24,000 nucleotides of DNA. It comes from Nitrososphaerota archaeon. GTDB lineage: Archaea; Thermoproteota; Nitrososphaeria_A; Caldarchaeales; Calditenuaceae. The notes below the pieces were generated by a model, which was not told where the DNA came from, searched no databases, and saw only the letters and a list, made by a program, of their open reading frames with translations. Made by a program: the position numbers and the translations under genes. Below, in pieces: positions 2,546 to 14,476 of this stretch (position 1 is the first letter of the stretch; each line of letters starts with the position of its first letter). Location: assembly GCA_041641295.1 (NCBI GenBank), contig JBEPYO010000001.1, positions 879,777 through 903,776 of the forward strand, in the 5' to 3' direction.

Positions 2546-3898
2546 CTAACTGCCGCGCCTCTCCTCCTCTACAATCCTGTAGAGGAATTCTGCTATGAGT
2601 GGTGCTAGGCCCAAGTATTCCTCTGCGCTCTTCGGTAAAATCTCGGAGGGCCTGAGTCCCTGCCTCTCCAATAGGGCCTTAACCCGCTCCAAGTAGTCGG
2701 CGCCGCCCACCCCGAGGGCCCTAAGCTCGTCAAGCAGGTCTACACCCCTCAGCCTAGCCCTTATCTGGATGGCCTCGGCGAGGATCTCAGGGTGCCTCTC
2801 CAAGTCCCTCCTAGCCTCATCCCTGTCAACCTCCATTCGCTCGAGGAAGGCTGAGAGGTTCTTGGCTCCGATTAGGAGGTGGGCTAGGGCTACCCCGTAG
2901 TTTCTCTTGATTGTCGAGTCGGAGAGGTCCCGCTGGAGTCTTGAGACTAGGAGTCTGGAGGCGAGGAATGAGAGCATGTTCGAGGCAATCTCTAGGTTTC
3001 CCTCAGCGTTCTCGAGTTCGACTGGGTTGCTCTTCTGCGGCATGGTGGATGAGCCTACGCCGCGCGGCCTCGGGTAGACTATGCCGAGCATTGTCAGGAG
3101 CCAGAGGTCTCTGCAGAGGTCGACGAGGACCATTGAGGCGACTGAGAGCTCGTAGAGGAGGCGTGAGACGTCGTCGTGTGGAATTACCTGCTTCGTCGCG
3201 AGCCAGTGGACGAGGCCCAGCGACTCGACCAGCCTCCTCGAGGCCTCCAGCGCGTCGCTTCCGAAGACCTCTACGAGGCCCGCATAAGTGCCCACGGCTC
3301 CTGAGACCTTCCCCGGCAGCCGCATCTCACTAACCCTCCTGAGACATGTTAAGAGCCTATAGGCGTGGACTGCCAACTCCTTTCCCAGAGTTGTCGGGAC
3401 TGCTGGGCGTCCATGGGTCCGCGCAACAATCGCGGTGAACCTCTCCCTATACGCGGTCTCTACTATGCTTCGCAGAAGCCTCTCTAGGGCTGGGATGATT
3501 GCTGCTGAGATTGCGTCTCTCAGCGCCAGTGAGTGGGCCAGATTATTCACGTCCTCAGAGGTGAGGCCGATGTGTACTAGGTGGCCGACCTCCCTGAGGC
3601 CCTCCCGCTCAAGCCTCTCCCTCAGAAACCGGACCACAGCCTCCACGTCATGCCTCGTCTCAGCCTCAATCGCCTTCACAGCCTCGACGCCGCCCTCATC
3701 GAACCGGGAGACTATCTCGTCGAGCTTGGCTGAGAGCCTCCCTAGCAGGTGGGGTGCAACGCGTTCCGCGACCAGCTTCAGATACTCTGACTCGACCCTG
3801 AGCCTATACTTCATCAGGGCCTCCTCAGAGAAGTATGACTGGAGCTCGGAGACCAGCGCCCTATAGCGCCCGTCGACAGGCGATATCGCCCCTCTCAC
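2546..3898 (-). CDS. purB: Adenylosuccinate lyase
   Basis: 450 aa. N-terminal SPVDGRYR, the fumarate-lyase signature [16 protein letters not shown], and a typical PurB length. Confidence 0.92.
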
Positions 3899-5197: not shown

Positions 5198-5986
5198 CTA
5201 CAGCTTCCTCAGCACTCTCTCGAGCCACTCGGCCGTAGCGGATATGGCCTTCCACTCCACCTCAGGGCCCGTAAACGTGTGGTCCCCATCCTCAACCACA
5301 AACTTCTCCCGAGGCTCACCGGCCCTATTGTATAGCATGTCCGCGTGGCTCGGAGGGACGACGCTGTCCCTACCACCATGGACTATGAGCAGAGGCCTTG
5401 GAGAGATCTTGGAGACTGCCTCTGATATGCTGTAGGACAGGAGGTCTCGGATGAACCTCATGCTCATCCTATACCCCGATGGCAGGTCTATGTATTCGCC
5501 GGAGGCCGCACCACCCTTTAAGAGGGTCTTCGCGTACTCTGCCAGTGCTAGGAAGTCTGCGGGAGCGCTCCACGTGCAGACAAACCTAATCCTAGGGTCG
5601 CGTGAGGCCCTGACTAGGGAGACCGCGCCACCCATACTCAAGCCCAGCACCCCAATCCTCCCAGCGTCAACGTCAGGCCTCCCTGAGACATAGTCCAGCA
5701 CACTGCCTAGGTCCTCAACCTCGCTTGTAAAAGTCGCCTCACTAAACTCTCCCTCACTCTCGCCCGAGCCATAGAAGTCGAACCGCACCACGAGAAGACC
5801 CCTCCTACAGAACTCCCGGGCAGCCCTCACAAATAGGCGGTGAGCCTCAATCCTATTCCCAGTAAATCCATGGCACATAATGAGGCTGGGGGCTGGGGAA
5901 TGGTTGGGAACGTGGAACATGCAGGCGAGCCTACCCCGAGGCCCCCCCACCCAAACAAACTCCTCCCGCACAACCCAGAGCTGCAC
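5198..5986 (-). CDS. Alpha/beta-fold serine hydrolase
   Basis: 262 aa. HGFTGN oxyanion region, nucleophile elbow GLSMGG, and late D and H residues (HGGRDSVV, GDHTF). GTG start. A TTATATA box lies about 26-32 nt upstream on the minus strand, consistent with a leaderless transcript. Confidence 0.85.
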   Translation of the reverse strand: MQLWVVREEFVWVGGPRGRLACMFHVPNHSPAPSLIMCHGFTGNRIEAHRLFVRAAREFCRRGLLVVRFDFYGSGESEGEFSEATFTSEVEDLGSVLDYVSGRPDVDAGRIGVLGLSMGGAVSLVRASRDPRIRFVCTWSAPADFLALAEYAKTLLKGGAASGEYIDLPSGYRMSMRFIRDLLSYSISEAVSKISPRPLLIVHGGRDSVVPPSHADMLYNRAGEPREKFVVEDGDHTFTGPEVEWKAISATAEWLERVLRKL

Positions 5987-6063: not shown

Positions 6064-6095
6064 TGGGGCCGGCCGGATTTGAACCGGCGACCTCC
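6064..6095 (-). pseudogene. Orphan tRNA 3' half (variable loop, T arm, 3' acceptor strand, discriminator A)
   Basis: The minus strand reads GGAGGTC GCCGG TTCAAAT CCGGC CGGCCCC A. It is identical at 31 of 32 positions to the 3' end of tRNA-Val at 23509-23540. It matches the tRNA-Pro 3' end (8209-8240) at 28 of 32, differing only by compensatory T-stem changes. No matching 5' half (GGGGCCG plus D arm) lies adjacent. Confidence 0.7.
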
Positions 6096-6103
6096 ACATC
6101 TTT

Positions 6104-6179
6104 GAGTTCTCCATTAAAATATCCATATTCAGTGTCTTTAGCCTTCTGTTGTAGCCTCTATTAATGCTTCGGAGAACTC
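6104..6179. repeat. Perfect 9-bp inverted repeat (GAGTTCTCC / GGAGAACTC) enclosing a 58-nt AT-rich loop
   Basis: Read directly: 6104-6112 gagttctcc and 6171-6179 ggagaactc. On the minus strand the helix ends 8 nt before the tRNA 3' fragment. Confidence 0.7.
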
Positions 6180-6206
6180 GCTTCGTTATATCGGGTCTTA
6201 ACCGAT

Positions 6207-6327
6207 GGTCTTTAATAGGCTCAGACTATGATTACTACATAGGCTGAGCTATTGTGTTGTGGTATTTTCGCTCTGGTGCCTATTCCTTTATATCTATGGG
6301 TTTGTTTGTTGGTCTTAGATAGGCTCA
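6207..6327. repeat. Two 17-nt direct repeats (ggtctttaataggctca / ggtcttagataggctca)
   Basis: 6207-6223 and 6311-6327 are identical at 15 of 17 positions. A third copy of the core ataggctga lies at 6239-6247. All sit in the AT-rich segment next to the tRNA fragment. Confidence 0.6.
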
Positions 6328-6329
6328 TC

Positions 6330-7090
6330 GGGAGCCCCGCAGCCTGATGGATCGATGAGTCGGGTGGGCCGACGAGACACCATCTCCAGAGGCGGTGGAG
6401 GTGGTGTGGAGTGTGCGTCAGGCTGTAGTAGTAGAGGCGCCCGCTGGTGACGTGTGATGTTAGTTCCACGTCTACAGAAGGCGCTGGGCTCCGCCGCTAG
6501 GCTGAGGCCGCGCGCCCAATAGAAAGACGCGGCTATAGGCCTAGACAGAAAGATTAGACGACCATAACCACATACTCTTCCCCCAATTCTCACCCTAGCA
6601 TGGGTGACCACCCCACCGTCTTTTTTGGACGGGGTGGCGGGGGGAGGGGTTGGCTGGGCTAGGGGCCTTGGGGCGGTTCGCTTGGACCGACCACGCGCCA
6701 GGGCGGCTCGCTTGGGCTGACGGACGCGTGGAGAGGGACGAGGAATACCGACGACTCCTAAGGGATTGCTGGATGGTTTCAGATGTTACGGTTGATTCTA
6801 AAGGAAGATGGTCTAGGAATTAGGCCCCGATAGGAGGTCCCCTATCTCCGCCGGAGGGGTGTGCTCTCCGGCGGGAGGGGGTGTTATTCCTCCTGTCGGG
6901 GAGTCCCGTCTTTCTGGCGGCCTGGGCCTCCCGGGAAGGCCATGTCTCAGGACATGGCTTTTAGGGTTCCCCAGCACCTTGGGGGTGGGTTGGTGGCTGG
7001 GGATAATAGGGAGCAATATGCTCCCTCCACAAACCCCACGGCCCCTCCTGGTCCCGGGAGGAAGGCCGCCATGGATGGGACGGGGGAGGA
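6330..7090. ncRNA. Candidate structured RNA or structured leader of unknown class; strand unresolved
   Basis: About 750 nt of GC-rich sequence with no convincing ORF, whereas other intergenic spacers in this window are AT-rich. Stems I traced by hand:
- 6322-6330 with 6353-6361.
- 6507-6512 with 6528-6533.
- 6829-6834 with 6841-6846.
- 6846-6855 with 6867-6877.
- 6937-6946 with 6951-6960 (10 bp, 4-nt loop).
- 6969-6975 with 6996-7002.
- 7009-7015 with 7019-7025.
- 7040-7048 with 7057-7067.
A T6 tract at 6621-6626 sits in a hairpin loop. Confidence 0.3.
6671..6730. repeat. Tandem imperfect ~30-nt repeat, two units
   Basis: The units are gggcggttcgcttggaccgac... (6671) and gggcggctcgcttgggctgac... 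(6701). The first 21 nt match at 18 of 21 positions, and both are followed by acgcg after a 1-nt offset. Confidence 0.6.
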
Positions 7091-7094
7091 TAGG

Positions 7095-8159
7095 ATGGAG
7101 AAGACTAGGCGAAGACTAACACCGGAGAAGAGGGCTAGACTCTTAGATGCGTTGAGGAGGGGTGTGGAGAAGGGGTACGGCTACGTTGATGTTTGGAGGG
7201 AGCTGAAGAAAAGCGGGATAGATGTTTCTAGGAAAGCCGTTGAGTACTGGTATTACAAGTGTTTTCCAGAGAGGGTTAGAAGAAGGGGAGAATACCTCCC
7301 AAGAGAACTGAGAATAAGATTGTATGAAGAAGTCAGAGAGCTGAGAAGAAAAGGCCTAGGATACCGGAGAATAAGGAAGAATATCAAAGAACTTTACGGA
7401 GTTACGCTGAACAATGCTGTAATTAGTCATTGGTGTCGTGGAATTCACACACCATACAACGGTGCAAGGATACCCACAATAGACCATCTAGAACCATCCC
7501 CAGAGCTCGCCTATGTTATAGGTGTGGTTGCCGGTGATGGGTGGGTGGTAAAAATAAGCACAAGGAGTGGAGGATATAGGATTGGTGTCAAGGCGAAGGA
7601 CAGAGAGTTCATTGAGGAGTTCGCGAGATGCTTGGGGAAAGTCCTCGGAAGAGAGCCGCCGAAGCCAATAACTGTAGAGGGTGGGAAGCTTGAAGTACGC
7701 GTCCAATCGAAGACACTATATCAGCTTTTACAGAAACCCTTTGACATTGGGATGATAAGACCACTCGCAGAATACTCCGAAGACTGTATACGAAGTTTTC
7801 TGAGAGGATTCTTCGATAGTGAGGGTTCTGTGGATAAAAATAAGGGAGAGATTTGTTGCTATAATACTGATATCAGGCTTCTCGAATACGTCCAGAAACT
7901 ACTAAGGGCTCTAGGCATTGAGACAACGGGGCCGAGAATCAAAGCGAGAAAGGGGTCAATCTATAAAATATGCTATAAAATATGGGAGAGAACAACTGTG
8001 AAGAGAAAGGACGTATATTGCATTGAAGTCAGGGCAAAGGATAGACTAAAATTCTATAGACTGGTAGGGTTCACTATAAAGCGAAAGCAACAAAACCTAG
8101 AAGAACACCTTAAGAAACGCGGACTTCTGGTGACAAGCCACCAACCAACCCTCCCCTAA
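7095..8159 (+). CDS. Double-motif LAGLIDADG homing endonuclease with N-terminal tandem helix-turn-helix region
   Basis: - Motif 1 is LAYVIGVVAGDGWV (nt 7506-7544).
- Motif 2 is LRGFFDSEGSV (nt 7800-7832).
- Both keep the acidic residue (D, E) used for catalysis.
- The N-terminal ~130 aa has two similar HTH-like repeats: LTPEKRARLLDALRRG...VSRKAVEYWYYK and LPRELRIRLYEEVRELRRKG...LNNAVISHWCRG.
- I place the start at ATG 7095 (MEKTRRRL), preceded by ggagga at 7086-7091, where composition switches to AT-rich. ATG 7071 is an alternative.
- The track start at 6861 lies in GC-rich hairpin sequence. Confidence 0.85.
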   Translation: MEKTRRRLTPEKRARLLDALRRGVEKGYGYVDVWRELKKSGIDVSRKAVEYWYYKCFPERVRRRGEYLPRELRIRLYEEVRELRRKGLGYRRIRKNIKELYGVTLNNAVISHWCRGIHTPYNGARIPTIDHLEPSPELAYVIGVVAGDGWVVKISTRSGGYRIGVKAKDREFIEEFARCLGKVLGREPPKPITVEGGKLEVRVQSKTLYQLLQKPFDIGMIRPLAEYSEDCIRSFLRGFFDSEGSVDKNKGEICCYNTDIRLLEYVQKLLRALGIETTGPRIKARKGSIYKICYKIWERTTVKRKDVYCIEVRAKDRLKFYRLVGFTIKRKQQNLEEHLKKRGLLVTSHQPTLP

Positions 8160-8203
8160 TCCCTTCCCCCCACTTAATGCCCTCAGACTCATTTGCTCAT
8201 TTG

Positions 8204-8208
8204 AAAAA
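8204..8208 (-). terminator. T5 tract immediately 3' of tRNA-Pro
   Basis: The plus strand reads aaaaa at 8204-8208, so the minus strand reads CCCCA-TTTTT. Oligo-T tracts act as archaeal terminators. Confidence 0.5.
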
Positions 8209-8317
8209 TGGGGCCGGTGGGATTTGAACCCACGACCTCCTTCCCCAACTTGGGGGTGAAGCCCCAAGTTGACCGGGCCCGAGCCGGGCATCTTAGACCA
8301 TGCTCGACCACGGCCCC
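8209..8317 (-). tRNA. tRNA-Pro(CGG) with a 33-nt insertion (probable non-canonical intron) in the 3' strand of the anticodon stem
   Basis: - The minus strand reads GGGGCCG TG GTCG AGCATGGTCTA AGAT G CCCGG CTCGGGC CCGG[TCAACTTGGGGCTTCACCCCCAAGTTGGGGAAG]G AGGTC GTGGG TTCAAAT CCCAC CGGCCCC A.
- Removing the bracketed 33 nt restores a perfect CCCGG/CCGGG anticodon stem.
- The loop CTCGGGC has G37, as expected for tRNA-Pro.
- The insertion forms a 10-bp hairpin.
- A TTTATTTTTT box ends about 24 nt upstream of G1. Confidence 0.7.
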
Positions 8318-8374: not shown

Positions 8375-8605
8375 TTAGACGACTATAGCGGTTTCGGTCC
8401 TCTCAACGCCGTCGATCGTGTGTATCTGGGATAGGACCGTGTCTGTCAGCTTCTTCAAGTCCTCAGCCTCTACTAGGACCAGTACGTCGTATCTGCCGGT
8501 TATCATGCACGCGAGTTTACAGCCCGAGATCTTTCCAACCTGCTCGACAACATTCTTCGCCTTACCCGCCCTAGCCCTAATGAAGACGTATGCTTGGACC
8601 GCCAC
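8375..8605 (-). CDS. Stand-alone Lrp/AsnC ligand-binding (RAM) domain protein, no HTH
   Basis: 76 aa. AYVFIRARAGKAKNVVEQVGKISGCKLACMITGRYDVLVLVEAEDLKKLTDTVLSQIHTIDGVERTETAIVV shows the beta-alpha-beta-beta-alpha-beta RAM pattern, with G-x-YD and the V-x-x-T-x-T tail. GTG start. Confidence 0.8.
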   Translation of the reverse strand: MAVQAYVFIRARAGKAKNVVEQVGKISGCKLACMITGRYDVLVLVEAEDLKKLTDTVLSQIHTIDGVERTETAIVV

Positions 8606-8640
8606 GAAGTATCCACTGCCCTAAACGCTTATATCCTTTC

Positions 8641-8668
8641 CTCCCCCACAAACCCTTCACAGGACCAC
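8641..8668 (-). promoter_or_regulatory. ORB-like element on the left flank of the AT-rich tract
   Basis: The minus strand reads GTGGTCCTGTGAAGGGTTTGTGGGGGAG (TCCTGTGAA plus a G-string). Nearby on the minus strand, CCTCCACAGTTCA (8681-8693) is a mini-ORB-like CTCCACAG. Three TGTGAA half-sites lie at 8699-8720. Confidence 0.4.
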
Positions 8669-8935
8669 GCAGAATCTGTGAACTGTGGAGGGCTTCTCTG
8701 TGAAACTGTGAAGTGTGAAATAGGACTCTGAGAATCTCTGAAACAGACCCATAGATGGTTCATGTATTACCATTGTATGAATGATTGCAGTTTCTGCGTA
8801 TCTCTCAGGGATGCCTGATTGTTGCAGAAAATGAGCATTTCTGAGCCATTACAGTCGTGTCATAGGGCCCTTAACGATCCATAACTTTACCCGGTGAATA
8901 TGGGTGGTGAAGGGTGGACGCCAACACTCCACACG

Positions 8936-8956
8936 CTCCACTGGAAAAGGAGGGGT
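8936..8956 (+). promoter_or_regulatory. Origin recognition box (ORB)-like element
   Basis: CTCCACTGGAAAAGGAGGGGT is a dyad-like TCCA-N3-GGAAA followed by a G-string ending GGGGT. From memory this closely resembles the Aeropyrum/Sulfolobus ORB consensus (CTCCACAGGAAACGGAGGGGT-like). Confidence 0.6.
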
Positions 8957-8968
8957 TCAACAGACCTA

Positions 8969-8989
8969 ACCCCCATTCACAGTGAAAAG
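8969..8989 (-). promoter_or_regulatory. ORB-like element, inverted relative to 8936-8956
   Basis: The minus strand reads CTTTTCACTGTGAATGGGGGT, with a perfect dyad TTCAC-N-GTGAA plus a G-string. Its G-string faces that of the 8936 box across a 12-nt spacer. Confidence 0.45.
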
Positions 8990-9096
8990 CCGCGAAAAAC
9001 AGCTCTTCGAACAGGATAGGCAGATTTCGGACCTGAGGCCAAAGGCCTACGACCGGCACCTCAAAGAGGTGGAATAGCCAAACTCGCTTTAACACG

Positions 9097-9121
9097 CCCA
9101 CCCCACCAGTTCTAATGGAAA
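9097..9121 (-). promoter_or_regulatory. ORB-like element adjacent to the cdc6-proximal AT-rich tract
   Basis: The minus strand reads TTTCCATTAGAACTGGTGGGGTGGG (TCCA-N3-GAA followed by a G-string). Confidence 0.35.
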
Positions 9122-9238
9122 TTAACTAAAATCAACACAAACGGAGGAGGGAAAAAGAAATTAGATAAATAATTCCTCTTATCCTAGAAATTTCTCTCAT
9201 GGCTACCGATAACACTGCTGGCTAGCCCTTCAATTGTT

Positions 9239-14254: not shown

Positions 14255-14361
14255 ATGGGGCCGGTGGGACTTGAACCCACGGCTTCCGGGTTTCTTCTGT
14301 GCCAGCTACGCTTGTTGATGGGATCTGGAGCCCGGCGCCCTACCTTGCTAGGCCACGGCCC
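14255..14361 (-). tRNA. tRNA-Trp(CCA) with a 33-nt intron in the anticodon loop
   Basis: The minus strand reads GGGGCCG TG GCCT AGCAAGGTA GGGC G CCGGG CTCCAG[ATCCCATCAACAAGCGTAGCTGGCACAGAAGAA]A CCCGG AAGCC GTGGG TTCAAGT CCCAC CGGCCCC A. The intron sits at or near the canonical 37/38 position. The intron CTGG can pair with CCAG of the anticodon region. Confidence 0.85.
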
Positions 14362-14476
14362 CTTCCGCCTCTCTGAGAGGTGGAAAACTACAATTAATCC
14401 TTTTCCCGTTTGATCGCTTGGCGGGAAACGTTAAAGCATGGTCTTGAAGTATTTTACCCGTCTGGTGTGATGCTCT

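Follow-up and report, generated by a model that had tools for sequence, protein, structure and literature searches.

The window, by which we mean the whole 24-kb stretch of DNA that was analysed, comes from a hot-spring archaeon of the Nitrososphaerota and contains a tRNA-Pro(CGG) gene disrupted by a LAGLIDADG cassette of ~2.2 kb (Table 1). The insertion is flanked on the left by an AsnC-type small regulator gene, which is syntenic in loci L022, L034 and L083-L090, and on the right by an alpha/beta hydrolase gene, which directly adjoins the tRNA at the empty-site loci L083-L086.

Table 1. Features of the disrupted tRNA-Pro(CGG) locus (window coordinates)
Feature	Position	Strand	Basis or assignment
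tRNA-Pro(CGG) 5' exon, tRNA positions 1-42, native to the locus	8273..8317	-	Rfam tRNA match
33-nt insert at tRNA position 42/43, left end of the inserted DNA	8240..8272	-	Putative relaxed BHB intron
Replacement tRNA 3' half, positions 43-73, T-stem GTGGG/CCCAC, endonuclease-proximal	8209..8239	-	
T-rich spacer, tRNA 3' end to endonuclease stop codon	8160..8208		
Free-standing double-motif LAGLIDADG homing endonuclease gene with N-terminal HTH-like extension (longest ORF)	6861..8159	+	
Distal arm of the insertion, non-coding, ~0.76 kb	6096..6860		
Orphan tRNA 3' half, positions 42-73, T-stem GCCGG/CCGGC	6064..6095	-	Displaced original tRNA-Pro(CGG) 3' half
Alpha/beta hydrolase gene, native right flank of the insertion	5198..5986	-	Pfam
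AsnC-type small regulator gene, native left flank	8375..8605	-	Pfam

A tRNA was detected with Rfam at 8317-8209 on the minus strand (44.9 bits against a gathering score of 29), with an insertion of ~33 nt located 3' of the anticodon stem. ARAGORN, run on the window, missed this tRNA with its insert; when 8272-8240 were deleted, the resulting 76-nt sequence was called as tRNA-Pro(cgg) with a cloverleaf, as excision of a BHB intron should leave. A TTTTT tract follows directly 3' of the gene, and the tRNA-Pro(CGG) ending in a T5 tract that had been proposed in a preliminary description of this DNA is thus supported by both programs and by the tract itself. The insert folds into a hairpin of 10-11 bp. 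Application of the BHB rule by hand gave 3-nt bulges (GGU and AGG), a central helix of three Watson-Crick pairs and a G.A pair, an inner helix of 10 bp and no outer helix, that is, a relaxed motif, and the insert is regarded as a putative relaxed BHB intron. Every other tRNA-Pro examined (L022, L034, L053 and L083-L086) lacks an insert at 42/43.

The endonuclease gene is intact and is the only gene in the insertion. Its product matches Pfam LAGLIDADG_3 (E = 1.2e-21; 77.2 bits versus a cut-off of 22.5) and contains two LAGLIDADG motifs, LAYVIGVVAGDG and FLRGFFDSEG; residues G225/D226/G227 (GDG) and D319/E321/G322 (DSEG) are invariant across 28 homologues. The start was placed at 6942 (405 aa) or 6993 (388 aa) by the gene callers, and the region conserved across homologues starts near 7095. 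The GC content of the open reading frame is 0.41-0.49 versus 0.57-0.62 in the flanks, so that Pfam, the invariant acidic residues and base composition all agree with the AT-richer, double-motif gene with catalytic acidic residues described before. The open reading frame is antisense to the tRNA and lies 49 nt past its 3' end. According to the ORF list and Pfam, the 33-nt insert holds no ORF and the endonuclease lacks intein flanks; the gene is free-standing, outside any intron or intein and between host genes. Among solved structures the best match is I-DmoI (E = 3.7e-6), which has the same monomeric double-motif LAGLIDADG fold. The similarity is weak, and I-DmoI is intron-encoded, whereas the window gene stands free, runs antisense to its host gene and encodes an additional N-terminal region of ~130 aa that is partly HTH-like.

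Within the distal arm, blastn and alignment showed that 6335-6860 is common to the cassettes of L003 and L004 and that the AT-rich part, 6096-6334, is unique to the window. The arm carries two 21-nt repeats (6671-6691 and 6701-6721), and its small ORFs gave no Pfam match. At its far end lies the orphan tRNA 3' half (GGAGGTCGCCGGTTCAAATCCGGCCGGCCCCA, minus strand), which agrees with the tRNA-Pro 3' end in 28 of 32 nt, the other four falling in compensatory T-stem pairs (GCCGG/CCGGC versus GTGGG/CCCAC), and which differs from the 3' end of the tRNA-Val at 23581-23509 by one T-loop base. Its homology to tRNA ends at position 42, the position of the insert. All three relations had been pointed out beforehand and hold, as does every checkable detail of that first observation.

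L022 has an intronless tRNA-Pro(CGG) whose 3' half is identical to the orphan and whose 5' part is matched by the 5' exon of the window at 45/45 positions. Joined together, 5' exon and orphan form a 76-nt tRNA-Pro(cgg) that is recognized by ARAGORN and equals the L022 gene at 76/76 nt. The AsnC gene and the flank upstream of the 5' exon align with the empty-site locus L083, and the flank downstream of the orphan aligns with the flank behind the intact tRNA there. Identity with the L022 gene marks the orphan as the original 3' half of tRNA-Pro(CGG), now displaced, and corrects an origin from tRNA-Val.

The orphan might instead belong to a functional split tRNA, being transcribed and trans-spliced to a distant 5' half as in Nanoarchaeum or Caldivirga, which calls for a 5' half with a trailer complementary to GGAGAACTCAAAGATGT. 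A TATA-like ATATTTTAAT is present ~20 nt upstream of the orphan, its leader contains a helix of 9 bp (GAGTTCTCC/GGAGAACTC, with a 58-nt loop), and the clade is rich in disrupted tRNAs (PMC3293823). However, the leader pairs only with itself, and neither a complementary trailer nor a second tRNA-Pro 5' part occurs in the 24-kb window, which already contains a complete tRNA-Pro(CGG). In addition, L022 has the orphan sequence as the exact 3' half of an undivided tRNA, and orphans elsewhere (L006, L009 and L014) are visibly decaying. A split tRNA is very improbable on these grounds. Of the two helices that the preliminary description placed before the two 3' halves, both exist; the one in the insert (10-11 bp) stands, but the one in the orphan leader was not seen at other orphans and its region has a folding z-score of only -1.9, and it is therefore taken as unproven or due to chance.

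Hydrolase-tRNA junctions lacking the 2.1 kb, which had been suggested as a check, were found at L083-L086 in four related MAGs (Cdc6 87% identical), where DUF429, the hydrolase, a 76-nt uninterrupted tRNA-Pro, AsnC and Cdc6 are found with no endonuclease. The alignment of the window with L083 runs on the left side through the tRNA except for a 33-nt gap, and on the right side from GGAGGTC of the orphan into the hydrolase gene. The syntenic site is thus polymorphic for presence and absence, filled in the window, L001 and L089 and empty in L083-L086. Because the tRNA is uninterrupted in L083-L086 and the L022 tRNA equals the 5' part plus the orphan, these alignments show that about 2,178 bp (8272 to about 6096) was inserted at 42/43 into a once-contiguous tRNA-Pro(CGG) gene and the orphan displaced. 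No empty allele from the same species was found. At the nearest empty sites the gene is tRNA-Pro(TGG), with a 3' half identical to the replacement half of the window, and the native half can therefore be told only from the more distant L022.

The 2.18-kb insertion is bounded on both sides at 42/43, and the closest solved relative, I-DmoI, is intron-encoded, as would suit the remnant of a very large 42/43 intron that once held the endonuclease gene, comparable to crenarchaeal rRNA introns, with the internal 3' half as a later duplication. This origin, also listed in the preliminary description, is contradicted by the distal junction, where GATG before the orphan cannot pair with GCCC of the 5' exon strand under the BHB pairing rule, so that no BHB is formed with the 5' part, and by the terminator-like T5 tract after the first tRNA copy. 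The endonuclease gene is, moreover, antisense to the tRNA, and other family members have it outside the tRNA, beginning immediately past the discriminator base. We consider such a giant intron extremely improbable.

A total of 231 homologues of the window endonuclease were found, and the family is multi-copy per genome in Nitrososphaerota. A convergent tRNA 3' end lies just past the endonuclease stop (between 60 nt ahead of the end of the endonuclease match and 450 nt beyond it) in 44 of 80 family loci, where 1.1 were expected (Poisson P ~4e-53), at a median distance of 76 nt; the proposal to look for homologues beside tRNA 3' ends was thereby answered in the affirmative. The endonucleases group by genome rather than by tRNA. 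At least 11 paralogues occur in one MAG, each next to a different tRNA and with 67-87% identity to its nearest neighbour, and in eight of these a conserved cassette of ~1 kb starts exactly past the tRNA discriminator base, the point at which spacers related to that of the window also begin in other cassettes. Between the window cassette and those of L006 and L002, nucleotide homology extends through the spacer into the replacement half and ends at 8238-8240. Short-form paralogue cassettes have the tRNA 3' end itself as their limit, not 42/43, and leave no orphan; the site of the break may therefore vary by clade, or orphans may arise as by-products. Beyond the N-terminal end of the endonuclease, orphan 3' halves were found at L004 (Ala), L006 (Val), L009 (Thr), L014 (Thr) and L064, and five of the six orphans, the one in the window included, start at tRNA position 41-44. 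At L048, and in degenerate form at L005 and L013, the endonuclease is directly adjoined by a tRNA 3' fragment that lacks a neighbouring 5' part. Terminal inverted repeats are not conserved. Numerous copies are frameshifted or truncated, as expected in the life cycle of a homing endonuclease. The composite genome of Caldiarchaeum subterraneum (BA000048.1) encodes family members, one of which is convergent with and overlaps tRNA-Gly(TCC).

The direct repeats of a tRNA 3' portion that bracket foreign, AT-richer DNA also recall integrated elements of the SSV or pNOB8 kind, which are known to target archaeal tRNA genes (PMC3293823) and which share with the window the integration at a tRNA 3' part, the direct repeat of the tRNA end and a reconstituted tRNA. 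A decayed element of this kind would have entered the tRNA 3' part by site-specific recombination, duplicating its attachment site, and would since have shed the integrase and most cargo, the endonuclease being what is left. Against this, neither ORFs nor Pfam matches resembling an integrase or tyrosine recombinase (SSV or pNOB8 type), or a fragment of one, exist in 6064-8317, in line with the absence reported earlier, and related cassettes have no integrase either. The repeats are identical at 28/32 positions and not throughout, the left junction holds an extra 33-nt insert, and the insertion measures only 2.2 kb. Across the 80 loci the cassettes are only 1-3 kb long with the endonuclease as their sole conserved gene, and viral contigs yielded only two distant relatives of the family. 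A decayed integrase element, the second reading of the preliminary description, accordingly gained no positive support and is quite improbable.

The best explanation, and in our judgement the probable one, is a free-standing homing endonuclease cassette that targets tRNA genes and brought a replacement 3' half, with the original half displaced; this earlier proposed reading is favoured by the empty sites, the reconstituted tRNA-Pro(CGG) and the linkage of the family to tRNAs. Under this model, the endonuclease family would target tRNA genes and introduce a double-strand break in their 3' part, and a tRNA-endonuclease locus would act as the donor from which break repair would copy the cassette. 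On the left, repair would rely on tRNA homology; on the right, the ends would be joined with little or no homology, so that the 3' remainder of the recipient would stay as the orphan. Since the acceptor strand CGGCCCC is identical in the replacement half, this half with the 33-nt insert could restore a working tRNA, provided that the archaeal splicing endonuclease excises the insert as a relaxed BHB intron. Alternatively the gene could be dead, as tRNA-Pro(CGG) may be dispensable if tRNA-Pro(UGG) reads CCG. In the new allele the presumed target site is interrupted or altered by the insert and by the four T-stem changes, which would break the recognition site and protect this allele from re-cleavage, although the term 'cleavage-resistant' is pure inference.

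The same arrangement could result from passive recombination or gene conversion between tRNA-Pro paralogues with long identical stretches, one of which already had an endonuclease downstream; the endonuclease would then be a bystander, possibly inactive, and not the cutter. The acceptor GGGGCCG/CGGCCCC is common to three minus-strand tRNAs of the window, tRNA-Pro(TGG) of L034 and L083 has a 3' half identical to the proximal one, and at the AsnC locus of L034 a decayed endonuclease gene comes after tRNA-Pro(TGG). The end of the L001 contig is at 8238, at most 2 nt from the exon/intron boundary, which suggests that the 31-nt half is repeated in that sample. Passive recombination leaves unaccounted for, however, the fixed distance and orientation of the 44/80 abutments to tRNA 3' ends, the paralogues beside many different tRNAs in one genome, and the recurrence of orphans with the same boundary at different tRNAs, and we regard it as unlikely.

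Against the homing endonuclease model, the tRNA-Val of the window has the same right half-site (GAGGTCGCCGG) and yet has not been invaded, and the model does not explain how a cassette could pass between tRNAs of different acceptor stems without damage.

Free-standing homing endonucleases are familiar from T4-like phages and cyanophages, with intronless homing, SegB in the T4 tRNA region and F-CphI in collaborative homing with a psbA intron. Their genes lie between genes, their target is the conserved neighbour gene of endonuclease-less genomes, and they spread by break repair and co-conversion of the flanks, while the host allele escapes cleavage because its sequence differs or because an intron occupies the cut site. 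Unlike the window, these are bacterial-virus systems with mostly GIY-YIG or HNH enzymes, and we know of none that duplicates an exon half, uses a protein-spliced archaeal intron or has expanded over many cellular tRNA genes. In fungal mitochondria, for example at Allomyces atp6 with ORF360, an endonuclease brings along a substitute for the 3' end of its host gene and the resident 3' end persists downstream as a pseudo-fragment; those cases differ from the window in that they concern protein-coding organelle genes and have an in-frame fusion at the junction and not an RNA intron.

The preliminary description knew of no well-described archaeal example, and a close precedent exists in Caldiarchaeum subterraneum, where a homing endonuclease was not recognised (Sugahara et al. 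2012, PLoS One, PMC3293823). At its tRNA-Thr(GGU), a 1,868-bp insertion of atypical composition lies between a tRNA fragment and a complete tRNA and comprises a duplicated part of the tRNA and, at the boundary of the fragment, a new non-canonical intron (PMC3293823). It consists of a multi-copy non-coding 'a' region and one ORF 'b', with ~7 copies, of which a second adjoins another tRNA-Thr; SVMProt classed ORF 'b' as a DNA-binding/recombination protein, and a pNOB8-like integrase model was proposed (PMC3293823). The window likewise combines a tRNA fragment (orphan from 42) with a new putative intron at the fragment boundary (42/43). The two differ in that Caldiarchaeum duplicates the 5' part, with the element upstream, whereas the window duplicates the 3' half. 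It is likely but unproven that ORF 'b' is a member of the LAGLIDADG family of the window.

These results bear on the question of how tRNA introns at non-canonical positions, tRNA fragments and split tRNAs arose in archaea. To our knowledge, the only population-level case study is that of Caldiarchaeum from 2012, in which an integrase was invoked. With the present locus and its ~80 relatives a definite candidate comes into view, namely a family of LAGLIDADG endonucleases whose genes are joined to tRNA 3' ends, and this linkage suggests one route to archaeal tRNA fragments and odd introns. As a broader and only tentative proposal, which we hold to be less probable than not, this large Nitrososphaerota (Aigarchaeota/Thaumarchaeota) family may be a tRNA-gene-targeting mobile element that spreads within genomes from tRNA to tRNA and that, through the double-strand breaks it makes and their imprecise repair, is a source of non-canonical introns, fragments and possibly split tRNAs, in which case non-canonical protein-spliced introns would be junction scars that happen to be spliceable. 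If so, the window would be a fresh example in which intron, replacement exon and displaced exon are all still visible. Should the enzyme cut tRNA genes, it would provide a mechanism for intron gain and tRNA fragmentation, an unusual spread of a homing endonuclease over paralogous targets within a cellular genome, and a set of thermostable endonucleases with tRNA-gene specificities.

Using the neighbouring Cdc6 protein as a synteny anchor, we found four NCBI MAGs with an 87%-identical Cdc6 whose gene order equals that of the window: DUF7388, a RidA-type (Ribonuc_L-PSP) protein, a lyase, DUF429, a hydrolase, a tRNA, AsnC and Cdc6. The preliminary description had proposed looking in related genomes for hydrolase-tRNA junctions that lack its 2.1 kb of atypical DNA, and these four MAGs provide them, with the hydrolase-tRNA-AsnC order uninterrupted. 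Their hydrolase-AsnC gap is about 170 bp and contains one uninterrupted 76-nt tRNA-Pro; the endonuclease is absent from this gap in all four. In pairwise alignment with the empty site, the window matches on the left through the whole tRNA save for a 33-nt gap, and on the right from the GGAGGTC of the orphan tRNA 3' half into the hydrolase gene. The syntenic locus L022 (Cdc6 79%) carries an intronless tRNA-Pro(CGG), the first 45 nt of which are the 5' exon of the window and the last 31 nt the orphan. The L022 and empty-site comparisons show that a contiguous tRNA-Pro(CGG) received an insertion of about 2,178 bp at position 42/43, by which its original 3' half, now the orphan, was displaced. The inserted DNA opens with the 33-nt 'intron', followed by a replacement 3' half. 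The empty-site relatives and a further related locus, L034, have a tRNA-Pro(TGG) at the locus whose 3' half is identical to the replacement half. A locus that, like the one in L034, joins a tRNA-Pro(TGG) to an endonuclease gene is the probable source of the replacement half. The native status of the orphan over the replacement half rests on L022. An exact-pattern search for a same-species empty allele (anticodon loop, orphan and flank) gave 0 matches in metagenome contigs. The AT-rich AsnC-cdc6/orc1 spacer, with its three short repeats, may be a replication origin, in which case the invaded tRNA gene would lie beside it.

Coordinates of the features discussed, as positions in the window
Feature	Position	Strand	Remarks
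Orphan tRNA 3' half	6095-6064	-	Sequence GGAGGTCGCCGGTTCAAATCCGGCCGGCCCCA
TATA-like sequence	6113-6122	-	ATATTTTAAT, about 20 nt upstream of the orphan
CCACCCC...GGGGTGG hairpin	~6600-6642		Upstream of the endonuclease
Repeated motif of ~21 nt	6671-6691, 6701-6721		GGGCGGYTCGCTTGGRCYGAC; two copies, 30 nt apart
LAGLIDADG endonuclease ORF	6861-8159	+	Intact; Pfam LAGLIDADG_3, E = 1.2e-21
16-nt inverted repeat	6983-6998 / 8136-8151		15/16 complementary
tRNA-Pro(CGG)	8317-8209	-	Rfam 44.9 bits; ~33-nt insertion past the anticodon stem
5' exon	8317-8273	-	
33-nt insert ('intron')	8272-8240	-	
Replacement 3' half	8239-8209	-	
AsnC-cdc6/orc1 spacer	8606-9238		AT-rich, 630 bp
12-nt repeats in the spacer	8671-8742		Three copies (AGAATCTGTGAA), 30-nt spacing
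Putative tRNA-Trp(CCA)	14256-14362	-	Detected by Rfam only; 37-nt intron

Rfam detects four tRNAs in the window and no other family. The tRNA-Pro(CGG) is detected by Rfam but missed when ARAGORN is used by itself; the gene is followed by TTTTT, as had been described, and removal of the insert yields a 76-nt tRNA. The insert itself forms a 10-11 bp hairpin. Under the bulge-helix-bulge rule it has 3-nt bulges GGU and AGG, the central helix consists of three Watson-Crick pairs and a G.A, the outer helix is absent, and the whole is predicted to be a relaxed motif. Relaxed motifs of this kind are reported to be cut by broad-specificity (αβ)2 and ε2 splicing endonucleases (PMC5829648), and the insert is here treated as a putative spliceable intron. 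Its donor was sought with the exact pattern CACCCCCAAGTTGGGGAAGGAGGTC, which gave 0 matches in metagenome contigs; since even the source contig was not matched, that collection lacks this organism. No similar sequence occurs in any related locus compared. The locus was also assembled independently in Logan (L001), and that assembly stops at window position 8238, at most 2 nt from the boundary between replacement half and intron (8239/8240), which suggests that in that sample the 31-nt half occurs repeatedly or the site is heterogeneous.

The third minus-strand tRNA looks like tRNA-Trp(CCA), judged from its anticodon loop, and has both the GGGGCCG/CGGCCCC acceptor stem and the GTGGG T-stem of the replacement half. 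Because this acceptor stem is common to the Pro, Val and Trp tRNAs of the window, their 3' halves are interchangeable. Of its 32 positions the orphan shares 28 with the tRNA-Pro 3' end, all four mismatches being compensatory T-stem changes, and 31 with the tRNA-Val 3' end, from which a single T-loop base sets it apart. No matching tRNA 5' part was found for it anywhere in the 24-kb window. The preliminary description had made these same three statements, and they hold. Derivation from tRNA-Val was rejected, as the orphan equals the L022 tRNA-Pro(CGG) exactly, both at the T-loop base and over its whole 31-32 nt. The TATA-like sequence upstream of the orphan might permit its transcription. No conserved orphan-leader helix was found at L004, L006 or L009, three related loci with orphans of their own.

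Between the two 3' halves, the endonuclease ORF keeps both catalytic acidic residues and has a GC content of 0.41-0.49 versus about 0.6, and examination of ORFs and Pfam matches found no integrase between the tRNA 3' copies; the AT-richer LAGLIDADG gene without integrase that had been read from the sequence is thus confirmed. Its best solved-structure match, a weak one, is I-DmoI. A hidden gene in 6096-6860 was discounted, the ORFs there being without Pfam match. The inverted repeat flanks the endonuclease core within G-rich N- and C-terminal coding tails; a transposon with terminal inverted repeats was rejected, comparable repeats being at background in 9 of 10 related cassettes, and the repeat is probably compositional. 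The ~21-nt motif upstream of the gene recurs in six copies in L004 (3430-3707) and in several in the related locus L003, and could be an operator for the HTH-like N-terminus or a counterpart of the repeated 'a' region of Caldiarchaeum. The upstream hairpin is also kept in L003 and L004; alignment A2 shows an invariant stem and a 16-nt loop whose sequence in the window is not that of the L003/L004 pair.

We infer a homing mechanism in which the endonuclease would cut the tRNA gene in its 3' part and the break would be repaired from a tRNA-endonuclease donor. At the left break end, repair would draw on tRNA homology; joining at the right end would need little of it, and what is left of the recipient's 3' part would persist as an orphan that begins at the break. 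The presumed recognition site centred on 42/43 (CTCGGGCCCGG and GAGGTCGCCGG on its two sides) would no longer be intact in the invaded allele, with its insert and changed T-stem, and this allele would then be immune. The 2.18-kb insertion might instead be read as a giant intron; the distal junction and the 5' exon cannot combine into a bulge-helix-bulge, and the first tRNA copy is followed by a T5 tract, both of which argue against this reading.

L004 (tRNA-Ala), L006 (tRNA-Val, decayed), L009 and L014 (both tRNA-Thr) and L064 also have orphans, on the same strand as the tRNA and past the N-terminal end of the endonuclease. With the window included, orphan homology begins at tRNA position 41-44 in five of six; in L014 the homology also takes in the 3' end of a canonical intron. 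Four cases (window, L004, L006, L009) have two T-stems that can still be read and that differ from each other; in these, position 50 is T or A in the endonuclease-proximal T-stem and C in the orphan. In the tRNA-Val(CAC) of L006, the 22-nt 'intron' repeats tRNA positions 37-53 as a partial tandem duplication (15/17 nt; ACGGCGGTGGTCGTAGG versus ACGGCGGAGGTCGTGGG), so that at least one of the introns next to these cassettes has the look of a junction scar. This whole tRNA gene occurs twice in L006 (5136-5229 and 5363-5456) across a run of N, probably a scaffolding artefact. A tRNA 3' fragment directly beside the endonuclease, with no adjoining 5' part, is found in L048 and, degenerate, in L005 and L013. 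The L048 piece (25 nt, at about 520-545) is separated by an ordinary ABC sugar-transporter operon from an intact tRNA with the same 3' end, 3.1 kb off at 3632-3704, and is a scattered tRNA fragment.

Homologues of the endonuclease number in the hundreds in Nitrososphaerota, with several per genome. Several gene-called homologues carry, in alignment, C-terminal tails such as MGPAGFEPATSAV, which are tRNA 3' ends translated in reverse complement. It had also been proposed to record whether homologues sit beside tRNA 3' ends, and we scanned 80 genomic loci with a strict T-arm search, in convergent orientation, over a zone that begins 60 nt short of the end of the endonuclease match and extends 450 nt beyond it. 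A tRNA 3' end was present in 44 of the 80, compared with 1.1 expected from T-arm density elsewhere in the same loci (P ~4e-53), at a median distance of 76 nt; the association of the family with tRNA genes is strongly supported statistically. The partner tRNAs are Pro, Val, Ile, Met, Thr, Ser, Asp, Asn, Lys, Arg, Glu, Ala and Leu, and the endonucleases cluster by genome, not by tRNA. The Caldarchaeales MAG PSS.bin.6 holds at least 11 paralogues, 67-87% identical to the nearest neighbour and each with a different tRNA (L022, L025, L031, L049, L052, L053, L061, L065, L067, L069 and L070). Eight aligned loci of this MAG have a conserved cassette of about 1 kb. Its first base follows the tRNA discriminator base directly (ATATTAGTTATTATTTTGAG...), and its other end lies about 75-100 nt upstream of the ORF; in such short-form cassettes the boundary coincides with the tRNA 3' end, and no orphan is left. 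The set of paralogues looks like the outcome of spread from tRNA gene to tRNA gene within one genome. Many endonuclease copies are frameshifted or truncated. A viral or plasmid vector was considered and set aside, IMG/VR holding just two distant relatives (28-29% identical). The family behaves like a tRNA-gene-targeted selfish element with the endonuclease as its sole conserved gene. About half of the endonuclease-linked tRNAs have introns; the fraction tracks lineage (1/11 in one MAG, 4/4 in two Geocrenenecus MAGs), and we do not claim enrichment.

In Caldiarchaeum subterraneum, a 1,868-bp insertion separates a 5' fragment of tRNA-Thr from a complete copy of the gene; it includes a new intron at the fragment boundary, the repeated 'a' region and an ORF, 'b', that is itself multi-copy (Sugahara et al. 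2012, PMC3293823). ORF 'b' was assigned to DNA binding or recombination, and a pNOB8-like integrase model was proposed (PMC3293823). At least two members of the endonuclease family are found in the composite C. subterraneum genome BA000048.1 (1,680,938 bp), and ORF 'b' is therefore probably a LAGLIDADG endonuclease. One member (L093 3501-4539; range 184507-192490), annotated 'conserved hypothetical protein', runs convergently with a tRNA-Gly(TCC) and shares 19 nt with its 3' end. A full-text literature search returned no paper that ties free-standing LAGLIDADG genes to archaeal tRNA genes. Functional analogues are the free-standing endonucleases of phages, with intronless and collaborative homing (SegB, T4 tRNA region), and the endonuclease insertions of fungal mitochondria that supply the host gene with a replacement 3' end. 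With the present locus, the gain of introns and fragments by archaeal tRNA genes becomes a question that can be put to the test.
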